Positions 5,921-46,171 of a DNA stretch of 64,000 bases are shown here, one piece after another. Source of the stretch: a virus. A model generated the notes under the pieces. It ran no database searches. It was not told the origin of the DNA and worked only from the letters and a program-made list of their open reading frames with translations. Location: positions 1 to 64,000 of the IMG/VR virus record IMGVR_UViG_3300045988_121917; one strand, given 5' to 3'. The position numbers and the translations under genes were made by a program. Every line of letters begins with the position of its first letter. Position 1 is the first letter of the stretch.

Positions 5921-7624
5921 ATGGCTTCAATTGAAAAAAATATTTGGGATTATCTAATTAAAGAAATTAATAATCCATATGGTGTTGCCGGATTAATGGG
6001 TAATATCTATGCTGAGTCTGGTATGATTCCAAATAGAGTAGAAGTTTTATGCTTAAATAGATTAAAAGAACATGGTCAAGTATGGAATGATTCTACTTAT
6101 ACTGCGGCAGTTGATAATGGAAAAATCTCAAGAGAAACTTTTCTGCATCCACTCCCTAATAAGCAATATGGATATGGGCTTTGCCAATGGACAAGTCCAG
6201 GTCGTAAAGCAGGATTATATGATTTAGCAAAAATGAAACAAGCTTCTATTGGCAATGAATTAATTCAATTGCAATGGCTTATGACTGAATTAAAAAATAA
6301 TTATTCTACAGTTTTATCAACTTTAAAAAATGCAACAAGTGTAAGACAAGCTTCTGATATTGTATTAACTCGTTTTGAATGTCCTGCTAATACAGGTGAA
6401 ACTGTTAAAGCAACAAGAGCTAAATATGGTCAGAGGTATTATGATGCATATGCATCTAATAAAGGAGGAAACTCAATAGTGGCAAATTATAATAACTATA
6501 TTAATTCTACTGGTACTCATTATATTTCTAATTCAGGTTCAGATGAAAATGGTGGATATCATAGCGGAAGAGCTGGTGACCAGACTGGTAGAGAATGGTA
6601 CTTACGTTCTTGGTATAATAGACCATGGAATTGTGTATTAAGATATGAAAAAGACCCAAGAGTCGGTCAAAAAATGGCTGAATTAAGCTGTGCAGCAGCT
6701 CTTAATAATTTAGTTGGTTATGACCAATATGAAAGAGATACTTATTGGGCTCATTTAAAAGCATCTAACTATGATCCTGCTCAAATCACTATTGCATGTG
6801 AGGCAGACTGCTCCGCAGGAGTAATTGCTAATATTAGAGCAGTAGGATATTTACTTGGCATTCCAGCTTTACAAAATATTAATGCAAGTTATACTGGTAA
6901 TATGAGAGCCGGTTTTAAAGCTGCTGGATTTACTGTTTTAACAGCAGATAAATATCTTTCTGGATATGATTATTTACTTCCTGGAGATATTTTACTTAAT
7001 GATGCCCATCATACAGCAACAAATGTTACAAGAGGACGTTTAGCAGCTAATTCTAACTCACTACAACAAAGCCCAGCTCCAGAAAAAACTAATACTACTT
7101 ATGTTGGAAAAGGAATTGGTACTGCAACTGCAAAAACTGAGATGAATATTAGAAGTAATTCCAATACAAATAGCTCTTCTTATGGAACTATTTCTAAAGG
7201 AACTAAAGTAGAAGTATTAGAGATTTTATCTAATGGCTGGTATAAAATTGTATGGCCAGGTGCTTCATGCGGTTATGCTTATACTTCTAATTCTACTAAA
7301 ACTTATTATTCATATGTAGCTAAAAAGAAGGCTCCTACAATTACTAAACCAAAACCATCCAGTAGTAAAAGTATAACTGCAAAAGAAGGCGCAACTGACT
7401 TTAATAAATCTCTTGCAGGCACATATTATACAACAGCTGATTTAAATATCCGCCATGGAGCAGGTACATCTAAGGCTCTTATGGTTACAATTCCAAAAGG
7501 AACAAAAGTAGCTAATTATGGATATTACTCAGTTAGCAACGGTTGTAAATGGCTATATGTCCAATTCACATATAAGAACGTAACTTATACAGGATTTGCT
7601 TCAAGCACATATTTACGTAAATAA
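5921..7624 (+). CDS. endolysin / peptidoglycan hydrolase (phage tail-lysozyme-type catalytic domain plus SH3b-like wall-binding repeats)
   Basis: N-terminal region (AGLMGNIYAESG, GLCQWTSPGRK) resembles phage lysozyme-like domains. C-terminal repeated SH3b-like segments (GTKV...NGWYK, GTKVANYGYYSVSNGCKWLYV). RBS AAAGAGGAGG. The ORF-track TTG at 5897 is probably not the start. Confidence 0.6.
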   Translation: MASIEKNIWDYLIKEINNPYGVAGLMGNIYAESGMIPNRVEVLCLNRLKEHGQVWNDSTYTAAVDNGKISRETFLHPLPNKQYGYGLCQWTSPGRKAGLYDLAKMKQASIGNELIQLQWLMTELKNNYSTVLSTLKNATSVRQASDIVLTRFECPANTGETVKATRAKYGQRYYDAYASNKGGNSIVANYNNYINSTGTHYISNSGSDENGGYHSGRAGDQTGREWYLRSWYNRPWNCVLRYEKDPRVGQKMAELSCAAALNNLVGYDQYERDTYWAHLKASNYDPAQITIACEADCSAGVIANIRAVGYLLGIPALQNINASYTGNMRAGFKAAGFTVLTADKYLSGYDYLLPGDILLNDAHHTATNVTRGRLAANSNSLQQSPAPEKTNTTYVGKGIGTATAKTEMNIRSNSNTNSSSYGTISKGTKVEVLEILSNGWYKIVWPGASCGYAYTSNSTKTYYSYVAKKKAPTITKPKPSSSKSITAKEGATDFNKSLAGTYYTTADLNIRHGAGTSKALMVTIPKGTKVANYGYYSVSNGCKWLYVQFTYKNVTYTGFASSTYLRK

Positions 7625-7626
7625 TT

Positions 7627-8028
7627 ATGACTAAAGAAGAACGTGATATAACTATTAAAGAACGTCGCTGGCAAAGAGAAAAAGAAGTTCTTGAAAGAAA
7701 ATATAAATTAAAACAAGAAAAAAGAGAATTTAAAAAACAATTCCTTCCTAAAATATCTACTTCAAAACTCCTTATTCTTTTCTTGTTTATAAATTGCACA
7801 ATTATAGAACTTTTCACAGGCTTTGTAACTTTAAAGAGTCTTGATTTAACAACTCTTACCATGGCGAATCCAGACTTTACTCCATTAGTAGCATTAATAG
7901 GTGCAGTCGTGAGTGAGGTCGTAGGATATGCGGTCTATGCATTGAAGTCCGCAAAAGAGAATACTGTAGGTGGTATTACATACGAAGCAGCAATGCGTCA
8001 AATTGACGAAGATAAAGCTAAAGGATAA
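7627..8028 (+). CDS. putative holin-like membrane protein
   Basis: Highly charged N-terminus followed by two predicted TM helices, located immediately after the endolysin. Confidence 0.35.
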   Translation: MTKEERDITIKERRWQREKEVLERKYKLKQEKREFKKQFLPKISTSKLLILFLFINCTIIELFTGFVTLKSLDLTTLTMANPDFTPLVALIGAVVSEVVGYAVYALKSAKENTVGGITYEAAMRQIDEDKAKG

Positions 8029-8039
8029 TTGATTTTTAA

Positions 8040-8081
8040 CCCTAAAAGAGAAGATTTTTCTCTTTTAGGGTATTTTTTTTT
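8040..8081 (+). terminator. rho-independent terminator
   Basis: CCCTAAAAGAGAAGATTTTTCTCTTTTAGGG hairpin plus a T10 run. Confidence 0.85.
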
Positions 8082-8104
8082 GACCGTAACTAAAATTTTA
8101 AGAA

Positions 8105-8133
8105 TTGATTTTATTATTTTTTTATGCTATAAT
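8105..8133 (+). promoter_or_regulatory. sigma70-type promoter TTGATT-N17-TGcTATAAT
   Basis: -35 at 8105-8110, -10 at 8128-8133, upstream of the gyrB-like gene. Confidence 0.6.
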
Positions 8134-8183
8134 ATATATATGATAAGAAAAAATGATGATTTTAAAGTTGAAAGGAGATTTAT

Positions 8184-10082
8184 ATGTCTGAAAACTATGG
8201 TGTAAAAGACATAAAAACTTTGGAAGGTATTGAAGCCATCAGGCTTAGACCTGGTATGTATATAGGCTCAATCGGACCAGATGGAGTTAGACATATTACT
8301 CTTGAAATTATTTCTAACGTAATTGATGAGTATTTAAACGGATATTGTACAAAGTGTAATATTGAAGTAACAGAAAATGACATGGTAAAAGTTTCTGATG
8401 ATGGACGTGGTGTTCCTTTTGGAAAAGCCGCAGATGGTTCAGAAACTCTTGAAAATATTTTTACTAAACTTCATACAGGAGCTAAATTTGATAGCTCTGG
8501 TAAAACTGGATATAATACATCTGGTGGTATGAATGGTGTTGGTGCAAAAGCAACAAATGCATTGTCTGATAAATTTATTGTCACTTCCAAAAGAGATGGT
8601 AAAATTGCAACAATGACATTTGAAAAGGGTGAAAGAAAAGATTTTAAAGTTGAAAAGTATGCTGGAAAAGATACTGGAACAACTATTACTTTTCATCCTG
8701 ATATTGAGATTTTTAAAGAGGGAATCTCACTTGATTATGAAGAATTAAAAAGACAGATTCAGGAATTAGCATATCTTTCTCCTGGATTAACTTTTACATT
8801 AAAATATAAAGATAAGGCTGAAGATGTAATTGTTTCTCAGAATGGTATTCTGGATTATATTCAAGATTTGAATAAAAAGAAAAATACTATTACATCTGTT
8901 TTTTATGCTGAAGCTTTCGAAGATAGAATTGGTGTAAAATTAGCAATGCTGTATAACGATAGTTATACTGATACTTATAAATTATATACAAACTCAATTC
9001 CAAATACAGCTGGGACTCATCTTACTGGATTTAGAACTGCATTAACTTCTGCAATTAATAATTATGCAAGAGAGAATAAACTTCTTAAAGAGAAGGATTC
9101 TAATATCGTAGGTGATGAATTAAAAGAAGGTCTTGTATTAGTTCTTTCTTTTGTGATGCCAGACCCAGTCTTTTCAGGTCAGACAAAAGAGAAACTTGAT
9201 TCAAGTGAAGGACGTACAATGGTCCAGAAGCTGGTATCAAAAGAAATCGCAATTTGGCTTGACAGCCATCCTAATGACGCAAAAGCAATTATCAATAAAG
9301 CTTTATTAGCACGTGCCGCAAGAGAAAAAGCTAAAAAAGCTAAAGAAACAGTTCGTAAAGCTGATGTGAAGAAAAGGGCAGTAATGCCTGGTACATTAGC
9401 AGATGCAAGTTCTCGAAATAGAGCTTCTTGTGAAGTATTTATTGTAGAGGGAAAATCTGCGGCCGGTTCAACAAAAGAAGCAAGGGATAGAGCTACCCAG
9501 GCTGTATTCCCCGTAAGAGGAAAGATTCTTAACGTATTGAAGGCAGACCTCGCGAAGGCATTAAAGAACGCAGAAATTGATGGTATGATTACTGCTTTTG
9601 GACTTGAAATTAAAGATGGAAAAGTAATTGTAAATAAAGATAAATTGCGTTACGGTAAAATTGTTATTACAGCCGATGCGGACGTTGATGGTAGCCACAT
9701 TAGAGCGTTATTTTTAACCTTTATTTGGAAATTTGCTCCGCAATTAATTGAAGATGGATATATTTATGCGGCAGTTCCTCCACTTTATAAAGTAACTCAG
9801 GGAACTAAGATTACTTATTTAAAAGATGATGCTGCTCTTGAGGAGTTCAGAAAGACCGCTAAAAAATCTTTTGAGCTGGGTCGTATGAAGGGTCTTGGCG
9901 AGATGGACCCGTCCGAAATGGCTGAAACAGTTATGAATCCAGAAACTAGAACTCTTAAACAGATATGTATGGAAGACGCAGAAGAAGCTGCTAAAACTTT
10001 CATGAGATTGATGGGTGAGTCAGTTGTTTATAGAAAGAAATTTATCGAAGAGAATGCGTGGAGAGCAAATATTGACGTATAA
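8184..10082 (+). CDS. type IIA topoisomerase ATPase/Toprim subunit (GyrB/ParE-like)
   Basis: GHKL ATPase N-terminus, Toprim motifs EGKSAAGS and ADADVDGSHI, 632 aa. RBS AAAGGAG. Confidence 0.9.
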   Translation: MSENYGVKDIKTLEGIEAIRLRPGMYIGSIGPDGVRHITLEIISNVIDEYLNGYCTKCNIEVTENDMVKVSDDGRGVPFGKAADGSETLENIFTKLHTGAKFDSSGKTGYNTSGGMNGVGAKATNALSDKFIVTSKRDGKIATMTFEKGERKDFKVEKYAGKDTGTTITFHPDIEIFKEGISLDYEELKRQIQELAYLSPGLTFTLKYKDKAEDVIVSQNGILDYIQDLNKKKNTITSVFYAEAFEDRIGVKLAMLYNDSYTDTYKLYTNSIPNTAGTHLTGFRTALTSAINNYARENKLLKEKDSNIVGDELKEGLVLVLSFVMPDPVFSGQTKEKLDSSEGRTMVQKLVSKEIAIWLDSHPNDAKAIINKALLARAAREKAKKAKETVRKADVKKRAVMPGTLADASSRNRASCEVFIVEGKSAAGSTKEARDRATQAVFPVRGKILNVLKADLAKALKNAEIDGMITAFGLEIKDGKVIVNKDKLRYGKIVITADADVDGSHIRALFLTFIWKFAPQLIEDGYIYAAVPPLYKVTQGTKITYLKDDAALEEFRKTAKKSFELGRMKGLGEMDPSEMAETVMNPETRTLKQICMEDAEEAAKTFMRLMGESVVYRKKFIEENAWRANIDV

Positions 10083-10178: not shown

Positions 10179-10538
10179 ATGGAAACAAAAATATTTGAAT
10201 TTGTACCAGAAGAGTCAGAACACTTTGAATCCCAATTTTTAAAATGGTATGATGCGGGCAAGCCTAAAAATAATTTTAATGAGGCTTATAATTATAGTAC
10301 AATAACTCAATTTCTTATATGGGAGTATGGATTATCAGATGAGTCATATGATAAACCTCGTAGATGGAATCAAATTGTAGAAGGGGTTGTTTGTATTAAT
10401 GGACGCTATTTTTCTGTTTGCTATGATAGAGGTTTAACAGAAATGCAAGAAGATGATTATGACTTTGATGATAATATTACTGAAGTTGAAAAATGCACAG
10501 TTTTAAAAGAGGTAACAGAATGGAAGAAAAAAAGATAA
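10179..10538 (+). CDS. hypothetical protein
   Basis: 119-aa ORF with AAAGAGG RBS 7 nt upstream. Confidence 0.4.
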   Translation: METKIFEFVPEESEHFESQFLKWYDAGKPKNNFNEAYNYSTITQFLIWEYGLSDESYDKPRRWNQIVEGVVCINGRYFSVCYDRGLTEMQEDDYDFDDNITEVEKCTVLKEVTEWKKKR

Positions 10539-10759
10539 TTGAATTAGCTGGAGATTTTTCTCAAAAACCAGATATGGCCGCAATTACCAAAATAACTCCT
10601 ATAAAAGATGGGGATAAAGTGATTTTACATTTTGATATAGAGAAATATAATTTAGATATAGATACTGTTGCTCAACAATTTAAGCTATGGCAGCAATGTT
10701 TTCCACATAATGATGTAATTGGAGATTTGTGTAATATAGGCATTGAAGTAAAGGAGTAA
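10520..10759 (+). CDS. hypothetical protein
   Basis: Internal ATG with AAAGAGG RBS. The track ORF 10493 likely starts here. Confidence 0.35.
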   Translation: MEEKKIIELAGDFSQKPDMAAITKITPIKDGDKVILHFDIEKYNLDIDTVAQQFKLWQQCFPHNDVIGDLCNIGIEVKE

Positions 10760-10761
10760 AT

Positions 10762-11208
10762 ATGATATTTTATACAGATGGTTCGGCGAGTCCAAATCCA
10801 GGCCCAGGTGGTTTTGGAGTTGTTCAAGTCGATACAGAAGGTAATATTTTAAGTACATATTCCAGTAGACAGGATAATACGACTAATAATGAACAGGAAA
10901 TGAAAGCTATTCTTTATGCGGCCTGTCAAGGAGTATTAGCTAAAGAAGATGTATTAATTTACTCTGATTCTGCATATGCAATTAATACTTTTTCAAACTG
11001 GATATATAATTGGGAAAGAAATGGATGGGTTAAAGGAGATGGAAAGGTTCCTGAAAATTTAGAAATTGTGAAGGCTTTTTTTGATATATCTAAAATAATT
11101 GAGGTTACTTTTGTAAAAGTAAAAGGACACTCTAAAAATCCATTTAATGAGCTGGCAGATAATCTGGCGACAGGCAAGGTTAAACCTGGTAACTATTTGA
11201 CAATTTAA
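10762..11208 (+). CDS. rnhA: ribonuclease HI
   Basis: YTDGSASPNPGPGGFGVV RNase H signature with conserved acidic residues. RBS AAGGAG. Confidence 0.85.
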   Translation: MIFYTDGSASPNPGPGGFGVVQVDTEGNILSTYSSRQDNTTNNEQEMKAILYAACQGVLAKEDVLIYSDSAYAINTFSNWIYNWERNGWVKGDGKVPENLEIVKAFFDISKIIEVTFVKVKGHSKNPFNELADNLATGKVKPGNYLTI

Positions 11209-11225
11209 TTTTTTTATGGTAATAT
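11197..11225 (+). promoter_or_regulatory. sigma70-type promoter TTGACA-N17-TGgTAATAT
   Basis: -35 TTGACA at 11197-11202, -10 at 11220-11225. Confidence 0.5.
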
Positions 11226-11232
11226 ATTATAT

Positions 11233-11511
11233 ATGGATAAGAATAAAGAACAGTTAAAAAAACAATTACTACATTTTGTTAAATCAGTTGAAGAACTTAT
11301 GACAAAAGAAGAATATGATAAATATATGAAAGAATATCATAAACAAGATCCTCTTTTACAAACAGGTTCTGGTTATTTATATGTTCCATCAGAAGATGTT
11401 GTTATTAGTGCTGATTCAATTTATAATTTTATAGAAAGAGTTATAGATGAAAGTTTGATGGATGTAAAAATGCAATATTATAAAGAATTATTCGATAAGG
11501 GAGAGTTTTAA
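11233..11511 (+). CDS. hypothetical protein
   Basis: 92-aa ORF. Its stop overlaps the start of the downstream topoisomerase subunit. Confidence 0.45.
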   Translation: MDKNKEQLKKQLLHFVKSVEELMTKEEYDKYMKEYHKQDPLLQTGSGYLYVPSEDVVISADSIYNFIERVIDESLMDVKMQYYKELFDKGEF

Positions 11512-18196: not shown

Positions 18197-19093
18197 ATGA
18201 AATTTGAAAATATAAAAGTTTATAATTTTGAAAATGCTTTAAGAGGAATGAGAAATCCAAAAAATTCTTGGAATTTAAGCGATAGTTATTTTGGACTTAT
18301 TAATATAGACGATGATGAGCATGATTATGAAGTTGCTGAAGAGTGGGTTCAGAAAAAATTCCCTAATTATCCATCTAATGCAGACAATGAAGCCCTTATG
18401 GCTCAAGAAGAATATGATAGATGGCTTTTAAACAATGGTATTCTTGAAATTAATTTTGACCATCAATTGGCTAATGTCGCTTTTATTGGTCCGAATGATA
18501 TGAAGCTTGCTAAGGCTCTTATTAATGGCGGTTCCGAACATAGAAAATTTTTAAGACAAATTATGGTAACAGTTGACATTACAGCCCCACTTTTCTGGTG
18601 GAAGGAATTTGATACTTATAAAGTAGGTACTACAGCTAATTCTACTTCTACAATGCATAAACTTACGAGCAAGCCAATCACAAAAGATTGCTTTGAAATT
18701 GATGATTATGACCAAGATTTATCTGTCGATTTTACAGACCAATCTCTTGCTGGAGAAAATGGTTTTACTGACCACTGGCATATGGATATGTTTGTTGATG
18801 ACCTTATTGATAGATTAGAAGAACTTAGACTTGCTTATTTACAAACTAAAGATAAACGCTATTGGAAAGAACTCGTTCGTTGGTTACCAGAGTCTTGGCT
18901 TCAGACAAGAACTGTTACAATGAATTATGAAAATGTTTTGGCTATGGTTCATCAGAGAGGCCATCATAAACTTACAGAATGGTCTGGAGATGGCGAAGAG
19001 TTTATCAATGAAAGTTTCATTAAATTTGCTCATTCTTTACCTTATTCTGATGATTTTATCTTTATAGATAACAATACAACAGAAAGTAAGTAA
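18197..19093 (+). CDS. ThyX-fold (flavin-dependent thymidylate synthase-like) protein, apparently without the canonical RHRxxxS motif
   Basis: From memory, EHRKFLRQIMVTVDITAPLFWWKEF and VRWLPESWLQTRTVTMNYENVLAMVHQRG align with ThyX conserved blocks. DTYKV sits where RHR normally is. Confidence 0.4.
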   Translation: MKFENIKVYNFENALRGMRNPKNSWNLSDSYFGLINIDDDEHDYEVAEEWVQKKFPNYPSNADNEALMAQEEYDRWLLNNGILEINFDHQLANVAFIGPNDMKLAKALINGGSEHRKFLRQIMVTVDITAPLFWWKEFDTYKVGTTANSTSTMHKLTSKPITKDCFEIDDYDQDLSVDFTDQSLAGENGFTDHWHMDMFVDDLIDRLEELRLAYLQTKDKRYWKELVRWLPESWLQTRTVTMNYENVLAMVHQRGHHKLTEWSGDGEEFINESFIKFAHSLPYSDDFIFIDNNTTESK

Positions 19094-19521: not shown

Positions 19522-19587
19522 ATTTTTATGGGCTATGTTGATTAAAAAATAATCAACAAAACTCACATAATTGTGAGGAGGTATAAA

Positions 19588-20247
19588 ATGTCTATAGGAA
19601 TTTATAAAATTGAAAACTTAATTAACCATAAGATTTATATTGGTCAAAGTATAGAAATTGAAAAAAGATGGCAAAAACATCTTAATGCAAAAGATAATTT
19701 TGTTATTCATAAAGCATTACAAAAATATGGAAAAGAAAATTTTTCTTTTCAGATTATAGAAGAATGTGATTTATTAGACTTAGATAATAAAGAGCAATAT
19801 TGGATTAATTATTATAATAGTTTAATCCCAAATGGATATAATATGATTCCAGGTGGGAGTAATGGAGCTGGATTTGCAAAAGGGAAAAAAGTCTTACAAT
19901 ATACTTTAGATGGAGCTTTTATAAAAGAATATAACAGTGCTAATCAAGCTAGTAATCAAACAGGAGTTTGTCATTCTGATATATGCAAATGTTGTAGAGG
20001 AGATGCTCCAAGAGCAGGAGAATATCAATGGAAATATTCTGGAGATGATAAAGAAATTAAGCCTATTAAAGTAAGAACGGATTTTTCTGTTTTACAAATA
20101 GATAAAAATACTGATGAAATTATAAAAGAATTTTCTTCACTAAAAGAGGCTTTTGAACAGACTCATATTGCGAAATCTATTATCTGTAGAGTTTGTAATG
20201 GTAAAGGCAAAACTGCTGGTGGATTTAAGTGGAAATATAAAAAATAA
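19588..20247 (+). CDS. GIY-YIG homing endonuclease (free-standing)
   Basis: IGIYKIENL...IYIGQS...RWQKH...ENFSFQIIEEC at the N-terminus. RBS GAGGAGG. C-terminal region carries a repeated GxKWKY motif. Confidence 0.75.
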   Translation: MSIGIYKIENLINHKIYIGQSIEIEKRWQKHLNAKDNFVIHKALQKYGKENFSFQIIEECDLLDLDNKEQYWINYYNSLIPNGYNMIPGGSNGAGFAKGKKVLQYTLDGAFIKEYNSANQASNQTGVCHSDICKCCRGDAPRAGEYQWKYSGDDKEIKPIKVRTDFSVLQIDKNTDEIIKEFSSLKEAFEQTHIAKSIICRVCNGKGKTAGGFKWKYKK

Positions 20248-34838: not shown

Positions 34839-35201
34839 ATGAGTCAAGTAGTAAAAAGAGTTTGTGATTTATGTGGACATGAAATTACAGAAAACTTAGA
34901 TACTGGTAATATTAATTTTAATTATGCAAATTCTATGGGCTATATGTGTAGTCATAACATGGATATTTGTAAGGAGTGCGCTCCAAAGATTGTTCCTGCT
35001 CTTCATAAAACCTTAACAGATTTGTTTAAATTAAAAGAAAATGATAATGAGGTTTCTGATTTAAGTACATTCTTTCAGAGAGAAAGTATTATGCAGGAAG
35101 AAATGAGAAAATATCAGGAAGAGATAGATAAAGCAAATAAGCCAGGTGAAAATACTACACCAGGAGAATCAACAGGTAAAGAGGAAGAAGCAAGCGTATG
35201 A
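34839..35201 (+). CDS. hypothetical zinc-ribbon protein
   Basis: CDLCGH...CKEC motifs. RBS AAAAGGAG. Confidence 0.45.
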   Translation: MSQVVKRVCDLCGHEITENLDTGNINFNYANSMGYMCSHNMDICKECAPKIVPALHKTLTDLFKLKENDNEVSDLSTFFQRESIMQEEMRKYQEEIDKANKPGENTTPGESTGKEEEASV

Positions 35202-35770
35202 TAGGTTCTTATAAAATTCTTGCCATTATTGGAGAAGCTGGTAGCGGAAAAGATACTCTTATGCAAGAGGTTTTAAAAGTTAATCATAATCTCCATGAGA
35301 TAGTTAGTTTTACAACAAGACCTCCAAGAGAAGGAGAAAAAGACGGAATTAATTATCATTTTATTTCTGGTGAAGAATTTGCAGAAAAGCTTCTGGCAGG
35401 TGAAATGCTGGAAGCTGCCTGCTTCAATGACTGGTTTTATGGAACCGGTTTTGGCTCATTGCGCTCTGATTGTGTTAATATCGGAGTCTTTAATCCAGAA
35501 GGAATTGATAGTTTAATGGCTCATAAAAATATTGAGCTTGTAGTATATTATGTGACTGCTAAAGATAAGACTCGATTATTGCGGCAGTTGAATAGAGAAG
35601 AAAATCCAAATGTTGATGAAATTATTAGAAGATATAAAGCTGATAAAGATGATTTTGCTGATTTGGATTTTCATTATAATGAAATAGTGAATGAAGATAG
35701 AAAAGATATGGACTTCAATGTGAAAGTTGTATCTGCTGCGGCACAGCGGTTGGAGAACAAGATTGGATAA
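35198..35770 (+). CDS. guanylate-kinase-like (d)NMP kinase
   Basis: P-loop GEAGSGKDT and SFTTRPPREGEKDGINYHF guanylate kinase signature. Confidence 0.7.
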   Translation: MIGSYKILAIIGEAGSGKDTLMQEVLKVNHNLHEIVSFTTRPPREGEKDGINYHFISGEEFAEKLLAGEMLEAACFNDWFYGTGFGSLRSDCVNIGVFNPEGIDSLMAHKNIELVVYYVTAKDKTRLLRQLNREENPNVDEIIRRYKADKDDFADLDFHYNEIVNEDRKDMDFNVKVVSAAAQRLENKIG

Positions 35771-35844
35771 TTTATCCATCGCAAAAACCATATATAGTGT
35801 TAAGACTTAAAAAATTTTACTAAATATAGATGGAGGGATACAAT

Positions 35845-38163
35845 ATGTTAGAAGTTCAAAAACGAAATGGTGATATTGTCCCATTTGATAAAGAAAAAAT
35901 TATTGACGCAGTAAATAGAGCGATGATTGAAGTAGATAAAATCCTTTATGAAACAGATACTTCAAAAGATATTGCCACTGAAATTGAAGAAATGGCTAAA
36001 CGCTCTAAGACAACTATTTCTGTAGAAACTATTCAAGATTGCGTAGAAGATTTATTGATGCAATCTGAAAGAAGAGATGTTGCAAGAGCGTATATTCGTT
36101 ATAGATATAAGCAAGAAGCAAAGAGAGAACATGAGGCAGTTTTTATTAAAACTTATAGTGAAAAATTGGAAGCCCGCAATGTTCAAAATCAAAATGCTAA
36201 TGTAGATGAACATTCTTTTGGTGGACGTATGGGTGAAGCAAGTTCAGTTATGACAAAAAAATATGCTTTAGATTATATCGTATCTAAAATGTCAAGAGAT
36301 AATCATTTAAACAATGAGATTTATATTCACGACTTAGATAGTTATGCTGTTGGAATGCATAATTGTTTGTCACTACCTATAGATGATTTACTCAGAGATG
36401 GTTTTAATACTCGCCAAACTGATGTTCGTCCTGCTCAATCAGTTAATACAGCTTTTCAGCTTTTAGCAGTATTATTTCAATTACAATCATTACAGCAGTT
36501 TGGAGGAGTATCTGCTACTCACTTAGACTGGAGCATGGTTCCTTATGTTCGTAGAAGTTTTTATAAGCATTTCTTAGATGGTGTTAAATATTGTCAAAAA
36601 GGTCAGATGCTTGGATTAGCCGGAATTTATGAAGATTTTGATTTATCTAATGCAAAAGATATGTGGATTAAAGCTGATGCTTCTATTAATGATGATGTAT
36701 TTGTTAGAAATGAAGCTGCTTATAAATATGCTATGGATATGACAACAAAAGAAACTTATCAGGCTGTAGAAGGAATGTATCATAATCTTAATACATTGCA
36801 ATCTCGGAGTGGAAATCAGTTACCTTTTACTTCTATTAATTATGGCACATGTACTTTACCAGAAGGAAGATTGGTAACAGAAGCTTTATTAAATGTATCT
36901 ATTAAAGGTATTGGAAAGCTTCATAAAACTTCTATTTTTCCTTGTGGAATTTTCCAGTGTATGAAAGGAGTTAATCGTGAAGAAGGAGACCCAAATTACG
37001 ATTTATTTAAACTCGCATTACGTTCAACCGCCACAAGACTGTACCCAAATTATGCTAATGTAGATTGGTCTGGAAACGCAGGATATGACCCAGACGACCC
37101 GACGACTTACTTCAGTACAATGGGATGCAGAACTGCCAACGGATGGGATATCAATGGTTTCGGCCAAAAGAAGGATGGACGTGGAAATATTTGTCCTGTA
37201 ACAATTATTTTACCTACATTAGCGATGGAAGCTAAACAGAATTTTATGTCTCAATATGCTTTAACTGACGAAGATGCAAAAGAAGCTTTTGCAGTTGAAT
37301 ATTTCATGACTCTTTTAGATGAAAAAATTCATCAGGCAAAAGATATGTTAATTGAACGTTTTGATTGGATTTGTTCTCAGGATGCTTCTGCCGCAACTTT
37401 TATGTATGAGAATGGTACAATGAAAGGATATATTCCAGAAGAAGGAATAAGAAGTGCATTGAAGCATGGAACTTTAGCATTAGGTCAGTTAGGACTCGCT
37501 GAGACTCTTCAAATTCTTATTGGTACAGACCATACTACTCCAGAAGGAATGAAACTGGCTAAAAGAATTGAACAGTTATTTAAAGATAGATGTGCGGAAT
37601 TTAAAGAAGAATATAAACTTAATTTTGGAGTATATTATACTCCGGCTGAGAACCTTTGCTATAAAGCTTTAAAAAACTTTAAAGCAAAATATGGTGTAAT
37701 TGAAAATGTAAGTGACAAAGAATTCTTTACTAATTCAATTCATGTTCCAGTGTGGAAAAAAATGTCTCCATTTGAAAAGATTGATATTGAATCTCAATTA
37801 ACTGGTTATTCATCTGCGGGATGTATTACTTATATTGAATTAGATTCCGGTATTAAAAATAATCTTGAGGCATTAGAGCAAATTGTAAATTATGCTATGG
37901 ATAAAGATATTCCATATTTTGCGGTCAATGTACCAAATGATACATGCCTTGAGTGCGGCTACACAGATGAATTTAATGATAGATGTCCTATTTGCGGAAG
38001 CACTCATATCCAACAGCTTAGAAGAGTTACTGGATATTTAACAGGAAATTATAAAACTGCTTTTAATCTTGGAAAACAAGATGAAGTTGAACATCGTGTT
38101 AAGCATGGAGGAAGAAGAGAATGGGCGCAGATAAAACCTGGCACGACAAAGAAGAATACTTAA
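35845..38163 (+). CDS. nrdD: anaerobic ribonucleoside-triphosphate reductase (class III RNR)
   Basis: ATP-cone-like N-terminus, C-terminal Zn ribbon CLEC...CPIC, and glycyl-radical motif RVTGYLTG. RBS GGAGGGA before the ATG at 35845. Confidence 0.9.
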   Translation: MLEVQKRNGDIVPFDKEKIIDAVNRAMIEVDKILYETDTSKDIATEIEEMAKRSKTTISVETIQDCVEDLLMQSERRDVARAYIRYRYKQEAKREHEAVFIKTYSEKLEARNVQNQNANVDEHSFGGRMGEASSVMTKKYALDYIVSKMSRDNHLNNEIYIHDLDSYAVGMHNCLSLPIDDLLRDGFNTRQTDVRPAQSVNTAFQLLAVLFQLQSLQQFGGVSATHLDWSMVPYVRRSFYKHFLDGVKYCQKGQMLGLAGIYEDFDLSNAKDMWIKADASINDDVFVRNEAAYKYAMDMTTKETYQAVEGMYHNLNTLQSRSGNQLPFTSINYGTCTLPEGRLVTEALLNVSIKGIGKLHKTSIFPCGIFQCMKGVNREEGDPNYDLFKLALRSTATRLYPNYANVDWSGNAGYDPDDPTTYFSTMGCRTANGWDINGFGQKKDGRGNICPVTIILPTLAMEAKQNFMSQYALTDEDAKEAFAVEYFMTLLDEKIHQAKDMLIERFDWICSQDASAATFMYENGTMKGYIPEEGIRSALKHGTLALGQLGLAETLQILIGTDHTTPEGMKLAKRIEQLFKDRCAEFKEEYKLNFGVYYTPAENLCYKALKNFKAKYGVIENVSDKEFFTNSIHVPVWKKMSPFEKIDIESQLTGYSSAGCITYIELDSGIKNNLEALEQIVNYAMDKDIPYFAVNVPNDTCLECGYTDEFNDRCPICGSTHIQQLRRVTGYLTGNYKTAFNLGKQDEVEHRVKHGGRREWAQIKPGTTKKNT

Positions 38164-38318
38164 AACAAGCAAAAGAATGTAAATATTGTAGAGAACTAGA
38201 TGCAGATGATACTTTATATATGGCAAACGACTGAGATGGCGGAGTAGGATTTGAATATATCAGGCATATTAAATACTGCCCTATCTGCGGCCGCAAGCTT
38301 TTTAATTGGGAGGAATAA
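38121..38318 (+). pseudogene. small zinc-ribbon ORF (CKYC...CPIC) interrupted by an in-frame TGA
   Basis: Frame-0 ORF from ATG 38121 to TGA 38232-38234. It continues in the same frame to TAA 38316-38318 and contains a second CxxC. Could be recoding, a pseudogene, or a sequencing error. Confidence 0.2.
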
Positions 38319-38323
38319 TTATA

Positions 38324-38803
38324 ATGCGTTATGCAGGAATTATTAAAAATGATTTTTCCGCCGCTCCTGGAATAAGTGTAACTTTTTTTACACAAGGTTG
38401 CCCTCACAAATGTGAGGGTTGCCACAATCCAGAGACTTGGGATTTTGAAGGCGGAGAAGAAGTTACTCATGATACTATTTTAGAGGTTATTGAAGCTATT
38501 ACTGCTAATGGATTACATCGTAATTTATGTATTATGGGAGGAGAGCCTCTTTGCCCAGAAAATCAATTTTTGACTAATTTAATTATTAATTCTGTTAAAG
38601 AAAAACTTCCTGACACTAAAATTTATTTATGGACAGGATATTGTTTAGAAGATTTAGATATGAGTAATAATAGAATTAAATCAATACTTGAGCAAGTAGA
38701 TTGCATTATTGATGGTCCTTATGATAAAACAAAAAGAGATGTTTCTTTATTTATGAGAGGTTCATCTAATCAACGAATTTTATATAAGGGAACTGATTAT
38801 TGA
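38324..38803 (+). CDS. nrdG: anaerobic RNR activating protein (radical SAM)
   Basis: CPHKCEGC CxxxCxxC cluster near the N-terminus, about 160 aa, immediately after nrdD. RBS GGGAGG. Confidence 0.85.
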   Translation: MRYAGIIKNDFSAAPGISVTFFTQGCPHKCEGCHNPETWDFEGGEEVTHDTILEVIEAITANGLHRNLCIMGGEPLCPENQFLTNLIINSVKEKLPDTKIYLWTGYCLEDLDMSNNRIKSILEQVDCIIDGPYDKTKRDVSLFMRGSSNQRILYKGTDY

Positions 38804-41414: not shown

Positions 41415-42656
41415 ATGGCAAGAATAGTATATACAGGTCAGCCAATTCAAGCCTCTACTATTAATGACTATTATAATAGATTGGATGCTATTAGAACTTG
41501 GAATGGTAGATATTCTGCTATTTCTAATCGAGGAAGCGTTGGTAGTGGTGTTAGAATAACCAGCGCACAAATTATGAATGAAATTTTTAAAAGTGTTGTA
41601 GATACAAAAAATACTGTTTCATTTGTAAGTGGTGTTTCAATCTTAACTCCTATTGGAGTTAGTCAAGGCACTTCCGCAATTGGAAAAAAATCCATGGCTC
41701 AAATTGAAAAAAGTATTGGAATGATGGAACAAGCTTGTCGAGAATATTTTTCAAGCAATCGTGGAGGCTTTAATAGTTCTAATTATGGTGTTTTTGGTAG
41801 CTTTAGTTCTAATAGATCTGGACATAATGGCGCACATAGAATTTCTAATGATACCAGTTTTAATGTAATTGGTAATAATTCTAATAGAAGTGGTTATAAC
41901 GGTGGCCATAGAAGCGGTTATTTTGCTTCTAATAAAAGTAGTAATAATGCTTCTAATAGAAGAGGTTATAATAATGCTTTTAGAAATGGACATCATAATA
42001 CTTTTAACAGTGGATTTTTTAGTACCAAATGGGCAAGTAATAACGGTTCAGATTTTAGTTCTTTTGGAAGTAATAGTTCTAAATTTTCAGAAGTTCATAA
42101 TGGTAATCATAGTGGATTCAAAACCGGAAAATATCATCATCATTACTCTTATTGGGTATTTAACTGGGCCAGTAGTGGAAGTAAAGACGTTCAATTATCA
42201 GGTAATGCTCTTAAAAGAGGTAACTTCCAGGGCCATAACGGTTCTAAATACTCTGGAAATGGAAAAAATAGCACTAATAGAACTACTGTTAATAATGCTA
42301 AAAGAAGTTCTTTCCAAAAAGGTGGATATACTGCAAATAATAATACTAAATATACAGGACATACAACTGGTTGTTCTGGAAATAACTCTACTAATTTTTC
42401 CAGTGTTGGTACTCAATGCGTAGGAGATAATGCTTCTAATTATTCTGGAAATGCTACTGGATATACAGGTTTCTTTACTTCAAATTGTCCAAGTAATTTT
42501 AGTACAAATGATTCCAGTGTAAATACTTGTCCAAGTAATTTTTCTGGAGTAAATAGCAGTAATTTTAATTCTGTTAATACTGGTAATTTTAGTAATGTCG
42601 ATAAACGATGCTTTGTAGTTCATAGTAGCTATACTGTAGAAGGCGTTGATTTTTAA
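41415..42656 (+). CDS. Ser/Asn/Gly-rich repeat protein with Cys-containing C-terminal repeats, a candidate radical-SAM substrate
   Basis: Globular N-terminus of about 110 aa. Repeats SNRSGHNGAHR, SNRSGYNGGHR and SNRRGYNNAFR. Very many NxS/T triplets. C-terminal NCPSNFS and TCPSNFS repeats with 5 Cys. RBS AAAAGAGG. Confidence 0.55.
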   Translation: MARIVYTGQPIQASTINDYYNRLDAIRTWNGRYSAISNRGSVGSGVRITSAQIMNEIFKSVVDTKNTVSFVSGVSILTPIGVSQGTSAIGKKSMAQIEKSIGMMEQACREYFSSNRGGFNSSNYGVFGSFSSNRSGHNGAHRISNDTSFNVIGNNSNRSGYNGGHRSGYFASNKSSNNASNRRGYNNAFRNGHHNTFNSGFFSTKWASNNGSDFSSFGSNSSKFSEVHNGNHSGFKTGKYHHHYSYWVFNWASSGSKDVQLSGNALKRGNFQGHNGSKYSGNGKNSTNRTTVNNAKRSSFQKGGYTANNNTKYTGHTTGCSGNNSTNFSSVGTQCVGDNASNYSGNATGYTGFFTSNCPSNFSTNDSSVNTCPSNFSGVNSSNFNSVNTGNFSNVDKRCFVVHSSYTVEGVDF

Positions 42657-42686: not shown

Positions 42687-44111
42687 ATGATAGAAAATAA
42701 TGAAAAAATTTATTTTACAAATATAACTTTATTTACTACTGCTTTATGTAATCTTAATTGCGGATATTGTTATATTTGTAAAGATGCTACTGGATGTTTA
42801 AAACAAATAGATGATGATTTGGCTAAAGATTTTGAAAATGGAAGTCAAATTAAACAAGTCTATGATGTTGATCCAGAAGCAGATAAACATATTAAGCATA
42901 TTACTTTATGGGGAGGAGAACCTTTTCTTCATATAGAACGTTTTATAGATCACTTTGAAGAATATACAAAGGCTTTTCCAAACTTTAATGAATTAGATAC
43001 TTCAACAAATTTTACTCTTCCAAACCAAGTTGAATCTTTAAAAAGATTATTTGATACAATTATTAAATATTATCATGGTAATCAAAAATTTCATTTTGAT
43101 CTTCAGGTCTCAATTGATGGGCCTGAAGAGATGAATGATTTGGGAAGAGGTAAAGGAGTTACTCAAAAGTTCTTAAAGAATTTTAGAGATTTATGTGAAT
43201 TAGAATTTGATGATTCTAAAATTGATTTATATGTTCATACTAAACCAACTTTTTCAAAACCTACATTTCATTTTGTAGATACACCAGAAAAAGCATATGA
43301 ATGGTTTGAATTTTTCGATAGAGAAATGTATCAGCCTTATAAGAATAGAAAAACTCGAAAATGGTGTTTCTTACCATGTCTTTTCAATTATGCAACTCCA
43401 GCAGAATGGACAAAAGATGATGGACTTGAAGTGGCAAAGATTTATCGTTCAATCCAAAAGGTAACTCCAAAAATAAAACAATTAGATGGATGGATTCCTA
43501 ATTATGAAACTTATATTCCAAGCGTAGAGTTCTTATTAGGACGATTAAAAGATAATAATTCATTTAATAAGAAAAAATGTTTGGATTGTTCAAAGCCATT
43601 CTGCGGCGGAGGATGCGGTTCATTTTCACATGTAGTAGTTCCTATCCATGATGGAAAATATACTATGTGTCATAGAGGTATGTTTGATGATTATGTAGAT
43701 TATCATAATAATATGAAAGACCATGCTGATATGAATGGACTTGCCGCAAAATATGTTCAGACAAATAATGAATCTGCTTGGATTTATGATAAAGATCAGT
43801 TCTTAAATCTTAAAAAGACTTTTGACAATCTTATCCTATATCCTCATCAAATTTTTTATACAGATTATGTTAAGTTTGTATATGAATATGCAAAAGCAGG
43901 TATCATTGATGAGAAATGGACTGATATGAGTAAAATTGATAAAACGATTGCTATTTTTGTTGATAAATCATGTTGTTTACAAGATTCATATATTATTACT
44001 GGCTCTTGGATAACATCAAATCCATTAGAAATTCCATTGTGGTATAATGGAGCTATGGATGTAGTTGAAGAAGAAATTGACAGAGTAATGGCGGAAAGAG
44101 GTATTGTATGA
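42687..44111 (+). CDS. radical SAM / SPASM-domain enzyme (anSME-like)
   Basis: CNLNCGYC cluster, GGEP motif, anSME-like VSIDGPEEMND, C-terminal Cys cluster CLDCSKPFCGGGCGS...C. RBS AAAAGGAG. Confidence 0.85.
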   Translation: MIENNEKIYFTNITLFTTALCNLNCGYCYICKDATGCLKQIDDDLAKDFENGSQIKQVYDVDPEADKHIKHITLWGGEPFLHIERFIDHFEEYTKAFPNFNELDTSTNFTLPNQVESLKRLFDTIIKYYHGNQKFHFDLQVSIDGPEEMNDLGRGKGVTQKFLKNFRDLCELEFDDSKIDLYVHTKPTFSKPTFHFVDTPEKAYEWFEFFDREMYQPYKNRKTRKWCFLPCLFNYATPAEWTKDDGLEVAKIYRSIQKVTPKIKQLDGWIPNYETYIPSVEFLLGRLKDNNSFNKKKCLDCSKPFCGGGCGSFSHVVVPIHDGKYTMCHRGMFDDYVDYHNNMKDHADMNGLAAKYVQTNNESAWIYDKDQFLNLKKTFDNLILYPHQIFYTDYVKFVYEYAKAGIIDEKWTDMSKIDKTIAIFVDKSCCLQDSYIITGSWITSNPLEIPLWYNGAMDVVEEEIDRVMAERGIV

Positions 44112-45502
44112 CATTTCAAGAACAGCAAGATTTACTTTTAAAAAATTATTTATTCAGATATGATAAAGATGAAAATTCTGTTGAATTTATTATTACATCT
44201 GCATGTAATCAAAAATGTGAGTATTGTTATTTATACAGATATGGCGATGAAATGTATCCTCCAGAAGCCAATAAGAAAGAAAATATTCTTAGAAACTTAG
44301 CTCTATTATTAGATTGGCTTGACGAAAATGATTACCAGTATACAACTTTTGATATTTTTTCAGGTGAGTTTTTTCAAATCCCTTATTGGGAAGATGTTCT
44401 AAATGTTTTTTATGAACATCAAATAAATACTCCTAACGTTCCAAGAAGAGATTTTGTTATTCCTACAAATATGTCTTTTCTTATGGATGATGAAAAAACA
44501 GCAAGAGTTGAATATTGGATGAATAGAGTCAGAGATGATGTAAAACATTTCAATGGCTTTTGGTTAAGTGTTTCTGTAGATGGACCAACAGAGTTAGAAT
44601 CTGTTGAAAGAGGACTTAAAAATGGTCAAATAAAACAAGACAAGTTTTATGATAAACTTTTTAAGTTTATTGCAAAGTATTCTCTTTCTTGTCACCCTAT
44701 GATTACAAGAGAATTTGTAAAGAATTATAAACGTAATTATGACTGGTGGATTGATAATATTATTAAATATAATGTTATCTTTAAGAAAGAAAATGGATGT
44801 GAAGTATATTCAATTCCAATGATGTTAGAGGTCAGAAATGCGGAGCAGTGGGATGAAGAATCTTTAAAGGATTATAGAGATTTCCTTCTTTATGTAGCGG
44901 AAAAAGACTTAAATACGCTTCATAACGGAGATTTAACAGATTTTGCATATCATATGGCAGATAACTTCTCTGATGGGATGATGAATATTGGAAAATATAA
45001 TCATGTACAGCCATACATATTAGCTCTTCCAGAAATACAACATAAATTACCATGTTCAATTCAAGGCGGTTCAATTTTTAGAGTCGGAGATTTAGCAATT
45101 GTACCTTGTCATAGAACTTGTTATCCTGATAAAGTTTATGGTTTTCTTGAATTAAATGAAGATAAAACTAAGATTATTGGAGTTCGTGGAGAAAATCCTA
45201 TGCTTGCATATAAAATTAAGACTCTTAATCAAAATCGTTCTTTTATGAAATGTGCTGGCTGTCCTATTAAAAGCTTTTGTATGAAAGGTTGTCTAGGAGC
45301 GCAATATGAAGATAGAAAAGAACTTTTCTGCGCTATTGATGAAGTATGTGAAATGTTTAAAACTAAATATCGTACTGTTAATGATATAGCTGAAAAATAT
45401 GGCGTTTATGATATTATTTTAAATGATTTGAAAATTCCAAAAGAAAGAAGGGAGTTTATAAAATATGCAAGAGATATTATCAACAGATACTTGTATGACT
45501 AA
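44108..45502 (+). CDS. radical SAM / SPASM-domain enzyme (anSME-like), paralog of the upstream gene
   Basis: CNQKCEYC cluster, VSVDGPTELES, C-terminal CAGCPIKSFCMKGC. ATGA-coupled to the upstream rSAM gene. Confidence 0.85.
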   Translation: MTFQEQQDLLLKNYLFRYDKDENSVEFIITSACNQKCEYCYLYRYGDEMYPPEANKKENILRNLALLLDWLDENDYQYTTFDIFSGEFFQIPYWEDVLNVFYEHQINTPNVPRRDFVIPTNMSFLMDDEKTARVEYWMNRVRDDVKHFNGFWLSVSVDGPTELESVERGLKNGQIKQDKFYDKLFKFIAKYSLSCHPMITREFVKNYKRNYDWWIDNIIKYNVIFKKENGCEVYSIPMMLEVRNAEQWDEESLKDYRDFLLYVAEKDLNTLHNGDLTDFAYHMADNFSDGMMNIGKYNHVQPYILALPEIQHKLPCSIQGGSIFRVGDLAIVPCHRTCYPDKVYGFLELNEDKTKIIGVRGENPMLAYKIKTLNQNRSFMKCAGCPIKSFCMKGCLGAQYEDRKELFCAIDEVCEMFKTKYRTVNDIAEKYGVYDIILNDLKIPKERREFIKYARDIINRYLYD

Positions 45503-46142
45503 TGAAGTTTCTATTTTCGATTTAGCTCAAGACATTATGTTTAAAAAACAATTCGCATTAATAGATGAGTTAGATTTTAGATTAGGTAAGATAAATACGA
45601 CTGATGATGTAATTGAATCAGCCAGATTGAAAATTTATTATATCTATTATTTTATGCTTGATAATAATGAAAAAGAGTATTTTACTCATATAAAAAACTT
45701 TATCATTTTGTCTAATAATGATTTAATTAAACGAATTAAAAATACTACTGTTGAAGGTTTTTTTGATGAAGGTAAAAATACGATTGAAGAAATATACTTG
45801 AATAAATTGTTTTTAGTTCTATTAAAAGAATATGCTCCAGAGTTAAAATATACAGATTATAAAGATGACGTTTTATCTAATATGAATAAGTATATTTATC
45901 TTTTAAATGCAACTTATTTTGATGATTTCAGCTTATTTCAAGATAATGTCTTATATGGAATTTGCATTGGAAATTCTGTAGTTGATTATAAAAAATTCTT
46001 AACGGCTGCAGAGTGGGATAGATTCCAATATAGCATTTATTATTTATTTTATGGTATTAAAGAATTTCCAACAGACAATGAAATATTAGATATTGAAAAT
46101 CGTATTGAGAGTAAGGTAGACCTTCTTTATGTAAAAGAATAA
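45465..46142 (+). CDS. hypothetical protein
   Basis: 225-aa ORF with RBS AAGGGAG. Overlaps the rSAM stop by 38 nt. The start could instead be 45496. Confidence 0.45.
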   Translation: MQEILSTDTCMTNEVSIFDLAQDIMFKKQFALIDELDFRLGKINTTDDVIESARLKIYYIYYFMLDNNEKEYFTHIKNFIILSNNDLIKRIKNTTVEGFFDEGKNTIEEIYLNKLFLVLLKEYAPELKYTDYKDDVLSNMNKYIYLLNATYFDDFSLFQDNVLYGICIGNSVVDYKKFLTAAEWDRFQYSIYYLFYGIKEFPTDNEILDIENRIESKVDLLYVKE

Positions 46143-46171
46143 AGAAGTAAAGAGTAAAAGGAGTATAGTAA

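Follow-up and report, generated by a model that had tools for sequence, protein, structure and literature searches.

A protein family of phages and anaerobic bacteria with a predicted ThyX fold, a replaced RHR motif and a putative role in thymidylate synthesis

A ThyX-like gene in a viral genome

The DNA analysed here, called the window, is a 64-kb stretch (positions 1 to 64,000) of the virus record IMGVR_UViG_3300045988_121917, and the gene under study encodes a protein of 298 amino acids (aa) in a same-strand run of genes with a low guanine plus cytosine (GC) content (~31 %). The features discussed are listed in Table 1. The sole family assignment obtained for the protein was phrog_6721 (E=9.5e-50), for which the function label is 'unknown'. 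From alignments, a predicted structure and gene context, we conclude that the protein belongs to a large clade, as yet without annotation, that is sister to ThyX, the flavin-dependent thymidylate synthase, and that the most likely role of the family is that of a thymidylate synthase, converting deoxyuridine monophosphate (dUMP) to thymidine monophosphate (dTMP). We put the probability of this reading at roughly 0.6.

Table 1. Features of the window relevant to the ThyX-like gene
Feature	Position	Strand	Evidence or remarks
Gene for ThyX-fold protein (predicted), 298 aa	18197-19093	+	phrog_6721 member; putative large unannotated sister clade of ThyX
Most conserved block, residues 114-155, EHRKFLRQIMVTVDITAPLFWWKEFDTYKVGTTANSTSTMHK	18536-18661	+	Matches ThyX H53...RHR...S88-x-R90-Y91 in the alignments, including hhalign
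T140-Y141-K142	18614-18622	+	At the position of ThyX RHR (binds FAD phosphates and ribityl); hhalign, MAFFT
Residues 222-262, YWKELVRWLPESWLQTRTVTMNYENVLAMVHQRGHHKLTEW	18860-18982	+	Matches ThyX E144...R147-x-x-LP...N163-x-R165...R174...H178...E182; R254 and H257 invariant
Insertion site in codon W135 (T/GG)	18599-18600	+	Interrupted in locus L027; intact in the window
GIY-YIG protein, 330 aa	16579-17571	+	N-terminal hydrophobic/coiled-coil part, C-terminal GIY-YIG; Pfam GIY-YIG E=5.8e-11
Two small ORFs, 97 and 107 aa	17587-18193	+	Directly upstream of the ThyX-like gene; no Pfam or NCBIfam match
Winged-helix (MarR/TrmB-like) protein, 126 aa	19141-19521	+	Weak winged helix-turn-helix Pfam matches, all under the curated cut-offs
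Free-standing homing endonuclease, GIY-YIG + NUMOD1 + I-HmuI-like	19573-20247	+	Pfam; between the winged-helix gene and yorF
Guanylate-kinase-like dNMP kinase	35198-35770	+	Pfam Guanylate_kin E=3.6e-19
NrdD, anaerobic ribonucleotide reductase	35830-38163	+	Pfam NRDD E=7.9e-146
NrdG, activase	38306-38803	+	Fer4_12/Radical_SAM
dUTPase, 220 aa	39816-40478	+	Pfam dUTPase E=3.2e-12; domain ~106-209, ~95-aa N-terminal extension
FAD, flavin adenine dinucleotide; ORF, open reading frame; dNMP, deoxynucleoside monophosphate.

Predicted fold

The Pfam Thy1 model (PF02511) did not match the window protein even at E<=10, let alone at its gathering score, and a single-sequence search of Pfam returned only DUF5663, which was judged to be noise. 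Nothing was found when the protein was searched against the Protein Data Bank (PDB) with phmmer or against NCBIfam, and a profile of the family run against PDB sequences gave nothing useful. The 6-kb region had no megablast match among cultured phages.

Structure prediction with AlphaFold2, as a monomer without ligands and with a 67-sequence alignment as input, gave a model with a predicted local distance difference test score (pLDDT) of 91.2 and a predicted template modelling score of 0.87. Foldseek found 125 matches to this model in the PDB at E<=1e-3, and the best 50 of the 125 are all ThyX. In a viral structure library, the top matches were three gut-virome entries named 'Uncharacterized protein', followed by canonical phage ThyX. 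Among the 67 family members, 20 had sub-threshold Thy1 matches (best E=4.4e-4) and no other family recurred; a single member, P0220, passed, with 29.3 bits against a Thy1 gathering score of 24.8. Profile-profile comparison of the family with an alignment of nine ThyX sequences using hhalign gave E=0.0043 and a probability of 8 % over 153 columns, with no gap in the motif region. This comparison superseded one with a single ThyX sequence (E=0.063), which had a spurious 13-residue gap in the motif. The Thermotoga maritima ThyX query sequence was confirmed against the PDB.

The preliminary description of this DNA, made from the sequence alone, had identified a ThyX-fold protein from two blocks, residues 114-138 and 227-255. 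Both blocks are present and are aligned with conserved ThyX segments by hhalign and by MAFFT. The predicted structure, the Foldseek matches, the weak Thy1 matches and the hhalign comparison bear out this identification, with the proviso that the Thy1 matches come from relatives and not from the window protein itself. The window protein is thus predicted to have the ThyX (Thy1) fold.

Replacement of the RHR motif and remodelling of the active site

ThyX is a homotetramer with active sites made up of three subunits. It contains bound flavin adenine dinucleotide (FAD) and carries out a dTMP synthesis that depends on reduced nicotinamide adenine dinucleotide (phosphate), NAD(P)H, and on methylene-tetrahydrofolate, with release of tetrahydrofolate. 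Its signature is RHRX7S (Myllykallio 2002, as applied in PMC2826268). The phosphates and ribityl chain of FAD are bound by the RHR motif plus Ser71 and Arg190 (Mycobacterium tuberculosis numbering), and the dUMP ligands are Arg95, Arg199, Arg87, Ser105 and Arg107, with Tyr108 as a lid (PMC6514825).

Where the ThyX enzymes of PF02511 (TM0449, 1O26; Helicobacter pylori, 3AH5; M. tuberculosis, 2AF6) have RHRX7S, the window protein has TYK...S. The replacement of RHR had been noted in the preliminary description, and the hhalign and MAFFT alignments agree with it: DTYKVGTTANSTS (residues 139-151) fills the RHR...S region, and R78-H79-R80 correspond to T140-Y141-K142. The signature serine is kept as S151, shifted one residue further along than in RHRX7S. 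Residue conservation was tabulated for 67 diverse family members (Table 2), and arginine was never found at the T140 or K142 positions.

Table 2. ThyX active-site residues and their counterparts in 67 family members
ThyX residue	Role in ThyX	Window protein	Occurrence
R78	FAD/dUMP	T140	T 63/67
H79	FAD	Y141	Y 67/67
R80	FAD	K142	K 62/67
T55 (M. tuberculosis S71)	FAD	K117	K 67/67
R165 (M. tuberculosis R190)	FAD	E245	E 50/67, A 10, Q 6
R90	dUMP phosphate	M153	M 66/67
Y91	Lid	H154	H 66/67
R174	Uracil-polarising Arg	R254	R 67/67
H178		H257	H 67/67
S88	dUMP	S151	S 67/67
N85		N148	N 60/67
N163		N243	N 56/67
H53		H115	H 53/67
R147	dUMP	R228	R 34/67

The changes go beyond the RHR motif. All five ligands of the FAD phosphates and ribityl chain are replaced, including the two additional ligands, T55 and R165, that lie outside the motif. 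Judged from the alignments, the dUMP ligands R174 and S88 have counterparts in every member and R147 has one in about half, while R78, R90 and the lid Y91 have been replaced. On this mapping, the uracil-recognition core is retained, whereas the site for the ADP part of FAD has been rebuilt completely and the dUMP-phosphate site in part. Six residues that are absent from ThyX are invariant in the family (K117, R120, Y141, S149, R211 and W262); within the most conserved block the invariant residues are K117, R120, Y141, S149 and S151. The secondary structure of the model (helix 132-141, strand 144-147) is consistent with the hhalign mapping. The pLDDT falls to 73 at residues 141-150, and this dip may correspond to the mobile substrate loop of ThyX.

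These residues bear directly on one alternative, namely that the protein is an ordinary flavin-dependent ThyX with a drifted cofactor motif, which would use FAD or flavin mononucleotide (FMN) with NAD(P)H and release tetrahydrofolate; the adjacency of folA described below would then reflect general pathway clustering. The fold and a number of central residues at the isoalloxazine/dUMP site (H115, N148, S151, N243, R254 and H257) are kept, Y141 and K142 are semi-conservative replacements for H79 and R80, and the invariant basic residues K117 and R120, at the FAD-binding positions T55 and E58, could rebuild a phosphate pocket. The hosts, too, are from lineages that use ThyX. Moreover, annotated phage ThyX proteins with KHQ (phiEco32 gp64, L096; Vibrio phage 11895-B1, L097) or KYV (Bacillus phage Bolokhovo, L095) exist, so that, on sequence, even ThyX homologs that are easily recognised do not always have the RHR signature. 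However, these three came up readily in a tblastn search with T. maritima ThyX (E=1e-23 to 1e-29), which did not find the family, and they keep E86, S88, R90, Y91, R147 and R174, three of which (E86, R90 and Y91) have been lost by the family. In addition, the five FAD phosphate/ribityl residues have changed together, including a charge reversal (R165 to E245), and the tight coupling to DHFR seen in bacteria is a hallmark of the dihydrofolate-producing ThyA route and not of ThyX. We therefore consider a drifted ThyX unlikely, though it is the alternative to be taken most seriously.

Family size and distribution

More than 8000 close relatives were found, none with a Pfam domain, and an exhaustive search with a hidden Markov model returned 3,900 clusters (50 % identity, E<=1e-3). 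Confirmed family stretches number at least 576 in viral contigs and at least 593 in species-representative genomes (at least 593 GTDB species). Cultured phages that carry the gene are Clostridium phage phiCTP1, six Enterocloster phages, the Clostridioides difficile phiCD211 group and the T7-like Desulfovibrio phage ProddE, and in all of them it is annotated as hypothetical. Bacterial carriers among the matches listed include Clostridia (Lachnospiraceae, Oscillospiraceae and Ruminococcus), gut Bacilli, Treponema, Gastranaerophilales and Phascolarctobacterium. Bilifractor porci, an Oribacterium sp. and Eubacterium plexicaudatum ASF492 are among the carrier species. The bacterial members are labelled 'hypothetical protein' in NCBI, UniRef and JGI, including that of the cultured Lachnoanaerobaculum gingivalis, and literature searches found no description of the family. 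Bacterial members are a short form of ~205-220 aa with the same TYK and NS[TC]STMH motifs; relative to ThyX, the lineage of the window protein carries two insertions (residues ~37-95 and ~168-195).

Methanobrevibacter metagenome-assembled genomes (MAGs) are also among the matches listed. Two contigs from such MAGs (L134 and L172) have family members at ~40 % identity, which could come from archaeal viruses or proviruses or be binning errors.

In nine viral loci (L013, L015, L026, L029, L030, L031, L034, L065 and L083) the family gene contains a single in-frame TAG, at a site equivalent to Q121, E137 (Q in some members), K106 or N93. That these are pseudogenes was rejected, as every stop is TAG and lies at a Gln/Glu-type position. 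The pattern suggests that TAG is translated in the phages concerned, probably as Gln.

Nucleotide metabolism in the window and in other phages

The gene lies in a replication and nucleotide module, where it is preceded by genes for GyrB, RNase H, GyrA, an NAD-dependent ligase and the 330-aa GIY-YIG protein. It is followed by winged-helix, GIY-YIG+NUMOD, YorF-, AAA_24-, YorH- and DnaB-like genes and a primase-like gene and, further on, by genes for RecJ, a superfamily 1 helicase, PolIII-alpha, the guanylate-kinase-like kinase, NrdD, NrdG, the dUTPase and RuvC. The close relatives are contigs of 175-200 kb, and an SPbeta-like layout is common to all of them.

The presence of a dUTPase, a deoxynucleoside monophosphate (dNMP) kinase and NrdDG in the window without thyA, recorded in the preliminary description, was confirmed with Pfam and NCBIfam and with scans for ThyA and ThyX; neither ThyA nor a canonical ThyX was detected in the window, even at E<=10. 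The dUTPase also matched the NCBIfam dUTP diphosphatase model (E=1.2e-40, under that model's cut-off). Its N-terminal extension of ~95 aa had no match.

In the complete genomes of three phages from independent lineages, Enterocloster phage CB457P1 (96.6 kb), phiCD211 (131.7 kb) and ProddE (42.6 kb), the family is represented by a single gene each; neither ThyA nor a canonical ThyX was found in them at E<=10, nor in the other family loci examined. As positive controls, eight of eight canonical ThyX were recovered and the ThyA query gave a full-length match to the Escherichia coli enzyme in the PDB. All three phages encode NrdD/G and a dUTPase-type enzyme, and a nucleotide kinase is annotated in phiCD211 and ProddE. 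phiCD211 has NrdDG, dUTPase and guanylate kinase; in ProddE a MazG/DR2231-type nucleoside triphosphate pyrophosphatase, a kinase and NrdDG are just downstream of the family gene. Thus, in these three phages and in the window, the family gene is the only one resembling a thymidylate synthase gene, and it is accompanied by genes for dUMP supply and dNMP phosphorylation.

Several family members are fused to domains of nucleotide metabolism. P0138 has a C-terminal DNMK dNMP-kinase domain, P0192 a guanylate-kinase-like domain of the same type as the window kinase, P0220 a DUF3310 domain, which is that of the T7 gp1.7 nucleotide kinase (E=4.5e-23), and P0247 a DUF1599 domain ('nucleotide modification associated domain 1'). 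In locus L009 a guanylate-kinase-like gene adjoins the family gene, and distant members adjoin genes for guanylate kinase, Nuc_deoxyrib_tr, ribonucleotide reductase and dUTPase/DCD. A dUTPase-ThyX-DUF1599 block also occurs in Asgard viruses, where the ThyX is canonical.

Chromosomal loci in bacteria

In many Clostridia the family gene is a single-copy chromosomal gene with housekeeping neighbours (RuvB, GyrB, TatD and ABC-F). The gene orders found include ABC-F, family gene, DHFR; TatD, short-chain dehydrogenase/reductase (SDR), family gene; recF-like...gyrB, family gene; and family gene, DHFR, NfnAB-like (GyrB and recF were named from sequence only). The DHFR gene, folA, follows immediately in 10 of 80 bacterial loci, where it abuts or overlaps the family gene, with gaps mostly of -4 to +11 nt. 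The adjacent DHFR matches Pfam DHFR_1 at E=1e-39 to 1e-46, the outer flanks vary among these loci and one of the loci is on a 2.8-Mb contig. An operon-type coupling to DHFR was thus found in bacterial loci and was not seen in phage loci.

ThyA produces dihydrofolate, which must be recycled by DHFR, whereas ThyX uses reduced FAD (FADH2) and releases tetrahydrofolate (PMC5954106; PMC13174731). ThyX does not need folA, in contrast to the coupling found here. The arrangement resembles thyA-folA and td-frd of phage T4, with a thymidylate synthase gene followed by a DHFR gene, often with overlapping stop and start codons, and with the family gene in the place of thyA. The encoded protein differs in having no sequence or fold relationship to ThyA and no conserved Cys nucleophile (C165 is present in 29/67 members).

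In seven loci from Ruminococcus and other Clostridia MAGs (L139, L141, L144, L147, L154, L176 and L179), an SDR gene (~250 aa) lies between TatD and the family gene, which it directly precedes, and there is no adjacent DHFR gene. The SDR might conceivably be an enzyme like FolM/PTR1, acting as an alternative reductase for dihydrofolate or pteridines. In L169 (positions 7177-9473), and also in L168 and L182, an NfnAB-like pair, made up of a PyrK-like iron-sulphur/NAD-binding subunit and a GltD-like subunit, is downstream of the family-DHFR gene pair and could be a source of NADPH for DHFR.

Proposed function

In phages and in bacteria the gene fills the genomic niche of a thymidylate synthase gene. 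The fold, the kinase fusions, the phage niche and the bacterial operon agree in pointing to this role. In the proposed pathway, NrdDG would make deoxynucleoside triphosphates and the dUTPase would supply dUMP. The ThyX-like enzyme would then add a one-carbon unit to C5 of dUMP to form dTMP, which the guanylate-kinase-like dNMP kinase would convert to thymidine diphosphate. The likely substrate is dUMP, with methylene-tetrahydrofolate as the probable carbon donor.

How the reaction would proceed is a separate question. The loss of the FAD-ADP site and the coupling of the bacterial gene to folA lead us tentatively to favour a route without bound FAD, in which DHFR would recycle the dihydrofolate left when folate acts as the reductant; we would nevertheless give this mechanism less than even odds. 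A flavin that is bound differently, e.g. FMN, is about equally likely. In its furthest form, this proposal makes the family a third mechanistic kind of thymidylate synthase, with a ThyX fold and ThyA-like stoichiometry, in which methylene-tetrahydrofolate would be carbon donor and reductant at once; many gut and oral Clostridia, other anaerobes and their phages would have no other thymidylate synthase. We regard this as possible but tentative.

A number of points weigh against a role in thymidylate synthesis or against the flavin-free mechanism. The window protein itself has no Pfam Thy1 match and the hhalign support, with its 8 % probability, is modest, and consequently residue equivalences in the loop 143-155, where MAFFT and hhalign disagree by one residue, could be off by one. 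On the alignments, R228, the counterpart of a dUMP ligand, appears to be kept in only half of the members (Table 2). Flavin use could survive the loss of RHR by itself, as some annotated phage ThyX have KHQ or KYV. The pairing with folA is limited to the minority of bacterial loci given above, no DHFR gene was seen near the phage copies, and, as DHFR is also required for de novo folate synthesis, adjacency to folA is not proof of a dihydrofolate product. Finally, ThyX is recorded in 43 of 49 Clostridia genomes in a COG table, and if a canonical ThyX or ThyA is present in the carrier bacteria as well, the family would be a paralog with another role.

The last point leads to the possibility that the protein is not a thymidylate synthase at all, and is instead a ThyX-fold protein with different catalysis or none, such as a regulator that binds nucleotides, a protein that inhibits host ThyX, a methylase acting on RNA uridines or a hydrolase of nucleotides. 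A second role of this kind would be required in bacteria that have a canonical thymidylate synthase, the dUMP-phosphate ligands R78 and R90 have been lost, and no family member has been characterised. Strong conservation of ~20 polar residues at active-site-equivalent positions across the 67 members argues instead for catalysis, the dNMP-kinase fusions and the dUTPase, ribonucleotide reductase and DHFR neighbourhoods point to deoxynucleotide and folate chemistry, and a single-copy chromosomal gene is not expected for an inhibitor of host ThyX. We consider such a role very improbable. PolB (PDB 4P5A; compared by description only), deposited as a ThyX, is described as a ThyX paralog that methylates UMP and dUMP in polyoxin biosynthesis. 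Its gene belongs to an antibiotic cluster, unlike the family genes with their folA operons and phage nucleotide modules.

The preliminary description had suggested that an altered ThyX scaffold could transfer a different group onto dUMP or deoxycytidine monophosphate, giving a precursor for hypermodified pyrimidines in phage DNA instead of dTMP; hydroxymethyl would be one such group. Its view that the protein acts at the level of the nucleotide pool is retained here. The remodelled active site, the DUF1599 fusion in one member, the Nuc_deoxyrib_tr genes next to distant members, the dNMP-kinase fusions, which recall the hydroxymethylase/kinase logic of T4, and two radical SAM/SPASM genes in the window all count in favour of hypermodification. 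However, DUF1599 also accompanies canonical ThyX, the radical SAM genes are 24 kb distant, and no recognisable glycosyltransferases, hydroxymethyluracil kinases or aminotransferases flank the gene in the phage lineage. Family members with these motifs are encoded on the chromosomes of many Clostridia among housekeeping genes, often right beside folA, and bacteria are not known to carry hypermodified pyrimidines throughout their genomes. As the bacterial gene is housekeeping-like and DHFR-coupled, ordinary dTMP is a far likelier product, and hypermodification is improbable.

Flanking genes, insertions and mobility

GIY-YIG domains, as noted in the preliminary description, were confirmed with Pfam in both of the genes flanking the segment that contains the ThyX-like gene (Table 1). 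The downstream gene starts with GTG, and position 19588 is its first internal ATG. The accompanying suggestion of a mobile cassette bracketed by two homing endonucleases was rejected on synteny. The upstream GIY-YIG gene is in the same position in L002-L005 and is present in 28 of 61 locus groups; Pfam found no NUMOD module in it, and it thus differs from typical homing endonucleases. Sporadic occurrence is confined to the downstream GIY-YIG+NUMOD gene, which is found in L004 and not in L002, L003 or L005 (cluster 19, seven locus groups), as is characteristic of a free-standing homing endonuclease. The ThyX-like gene holds its position with or without this gene, which argues against a mobile cassette. 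The winged-helix gene is conserved in 32 of the 61 locus groups, and the two small upstream ORFs are variably present (clusters 24 and 28, in 11 and 6 locus groups, respectively).

The family gene has itself been interrupted. In L027, a 195.6-kb viral contig, a 1,050-nt intron-like insertion (10404-11453) containing a 233-aa ORF splits the most conserved motif. The exons are 96.6 % (exon 1) and 80.8 % (exon 2) identical to the window sequence. The junctions recall those of group I introns, with U as the last base of the 5' exon and G as the last base of the insertion, though Rfam found no intron family in the insertion and Pfam no domain in the ORF. The product of this ORF is Cys-rich and has a C-terminal '...LIEFNGLQHY' segment. 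Four family members of 400-478 aa (P0185, P0224, P0238 and P0239) have HNH+NUMOD4, some with a helix-turn-helix, in frame in the middle of the protein; these are either gene-caller read-through of intron ORFs or genuine in-frame insertions. Invasion of conserved motifs by introns and homing endonucleases is typical of essential nucleotide-metabolism genes, and for this reason the repeated intron/HNH invasion was counted toward a thymidylate synthase role. In L004 (1-2264) and L005 (1-1902), gyrB is also split by a gene for a 250-aa GIY-YIG protein, in the order HATPase/GyrB part, endonuclease, Toprim/GyrB_C part. The window gyrB (8184-10082) is intact and encodes 632 aa.

Other features of the window

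Adjacent radical SAM/SPASM-type genes for proteins of 474 and 464 aa are found at 42687-45502 (+). Their best matches, far below threshold, are to peptide-maturase families, and they are flanked by ORFs without a family match, including 41415-42656 and 45465-47948. A link between the pair (42.7-45.5 kb) and the ThyX-like gene was rejected, as nothing ties them together. On the opposite strand are a 2,171-aa ORF (52018-58533, -) and a gene for a 691-aa BspA-type leucine-rich-repeat protein (61801-63876, -). The GC skew changes sign at ~49-50 kb, by the minus-strand ORFs, and a module for virion structure or host interaction probably begins here.

Implications

On the accepted view, two enzyme families, ThyA and ThyX, account for thymidylate synthesis, and predictions made from genomes depend on recognising both; the ThyX/DHFR rule set is an example (PMC13174731). 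Predictions that depend on this include the susceptibility of gut microbes to antifolates and 5-fluorouracil, thymidine auxotrophy and the nucleotide autonomy of phages. The family described here is carried by phages of Clostridia, Desulfovibrio and Treponema and has no functional name in the annotation sources consulted. If it is a thymidylate synthase, many genomes of anaerobes and phages would have been mis-scored as lacking one, and dependence on DHFR, and with it sensitivity to trimethoprim and pyrimethamine, would differ from what 'ThyX' implies. If it is also flavin-free, it would illustrate how one scaffold can pass from one to the other of the two chemistries known to make dTMP.

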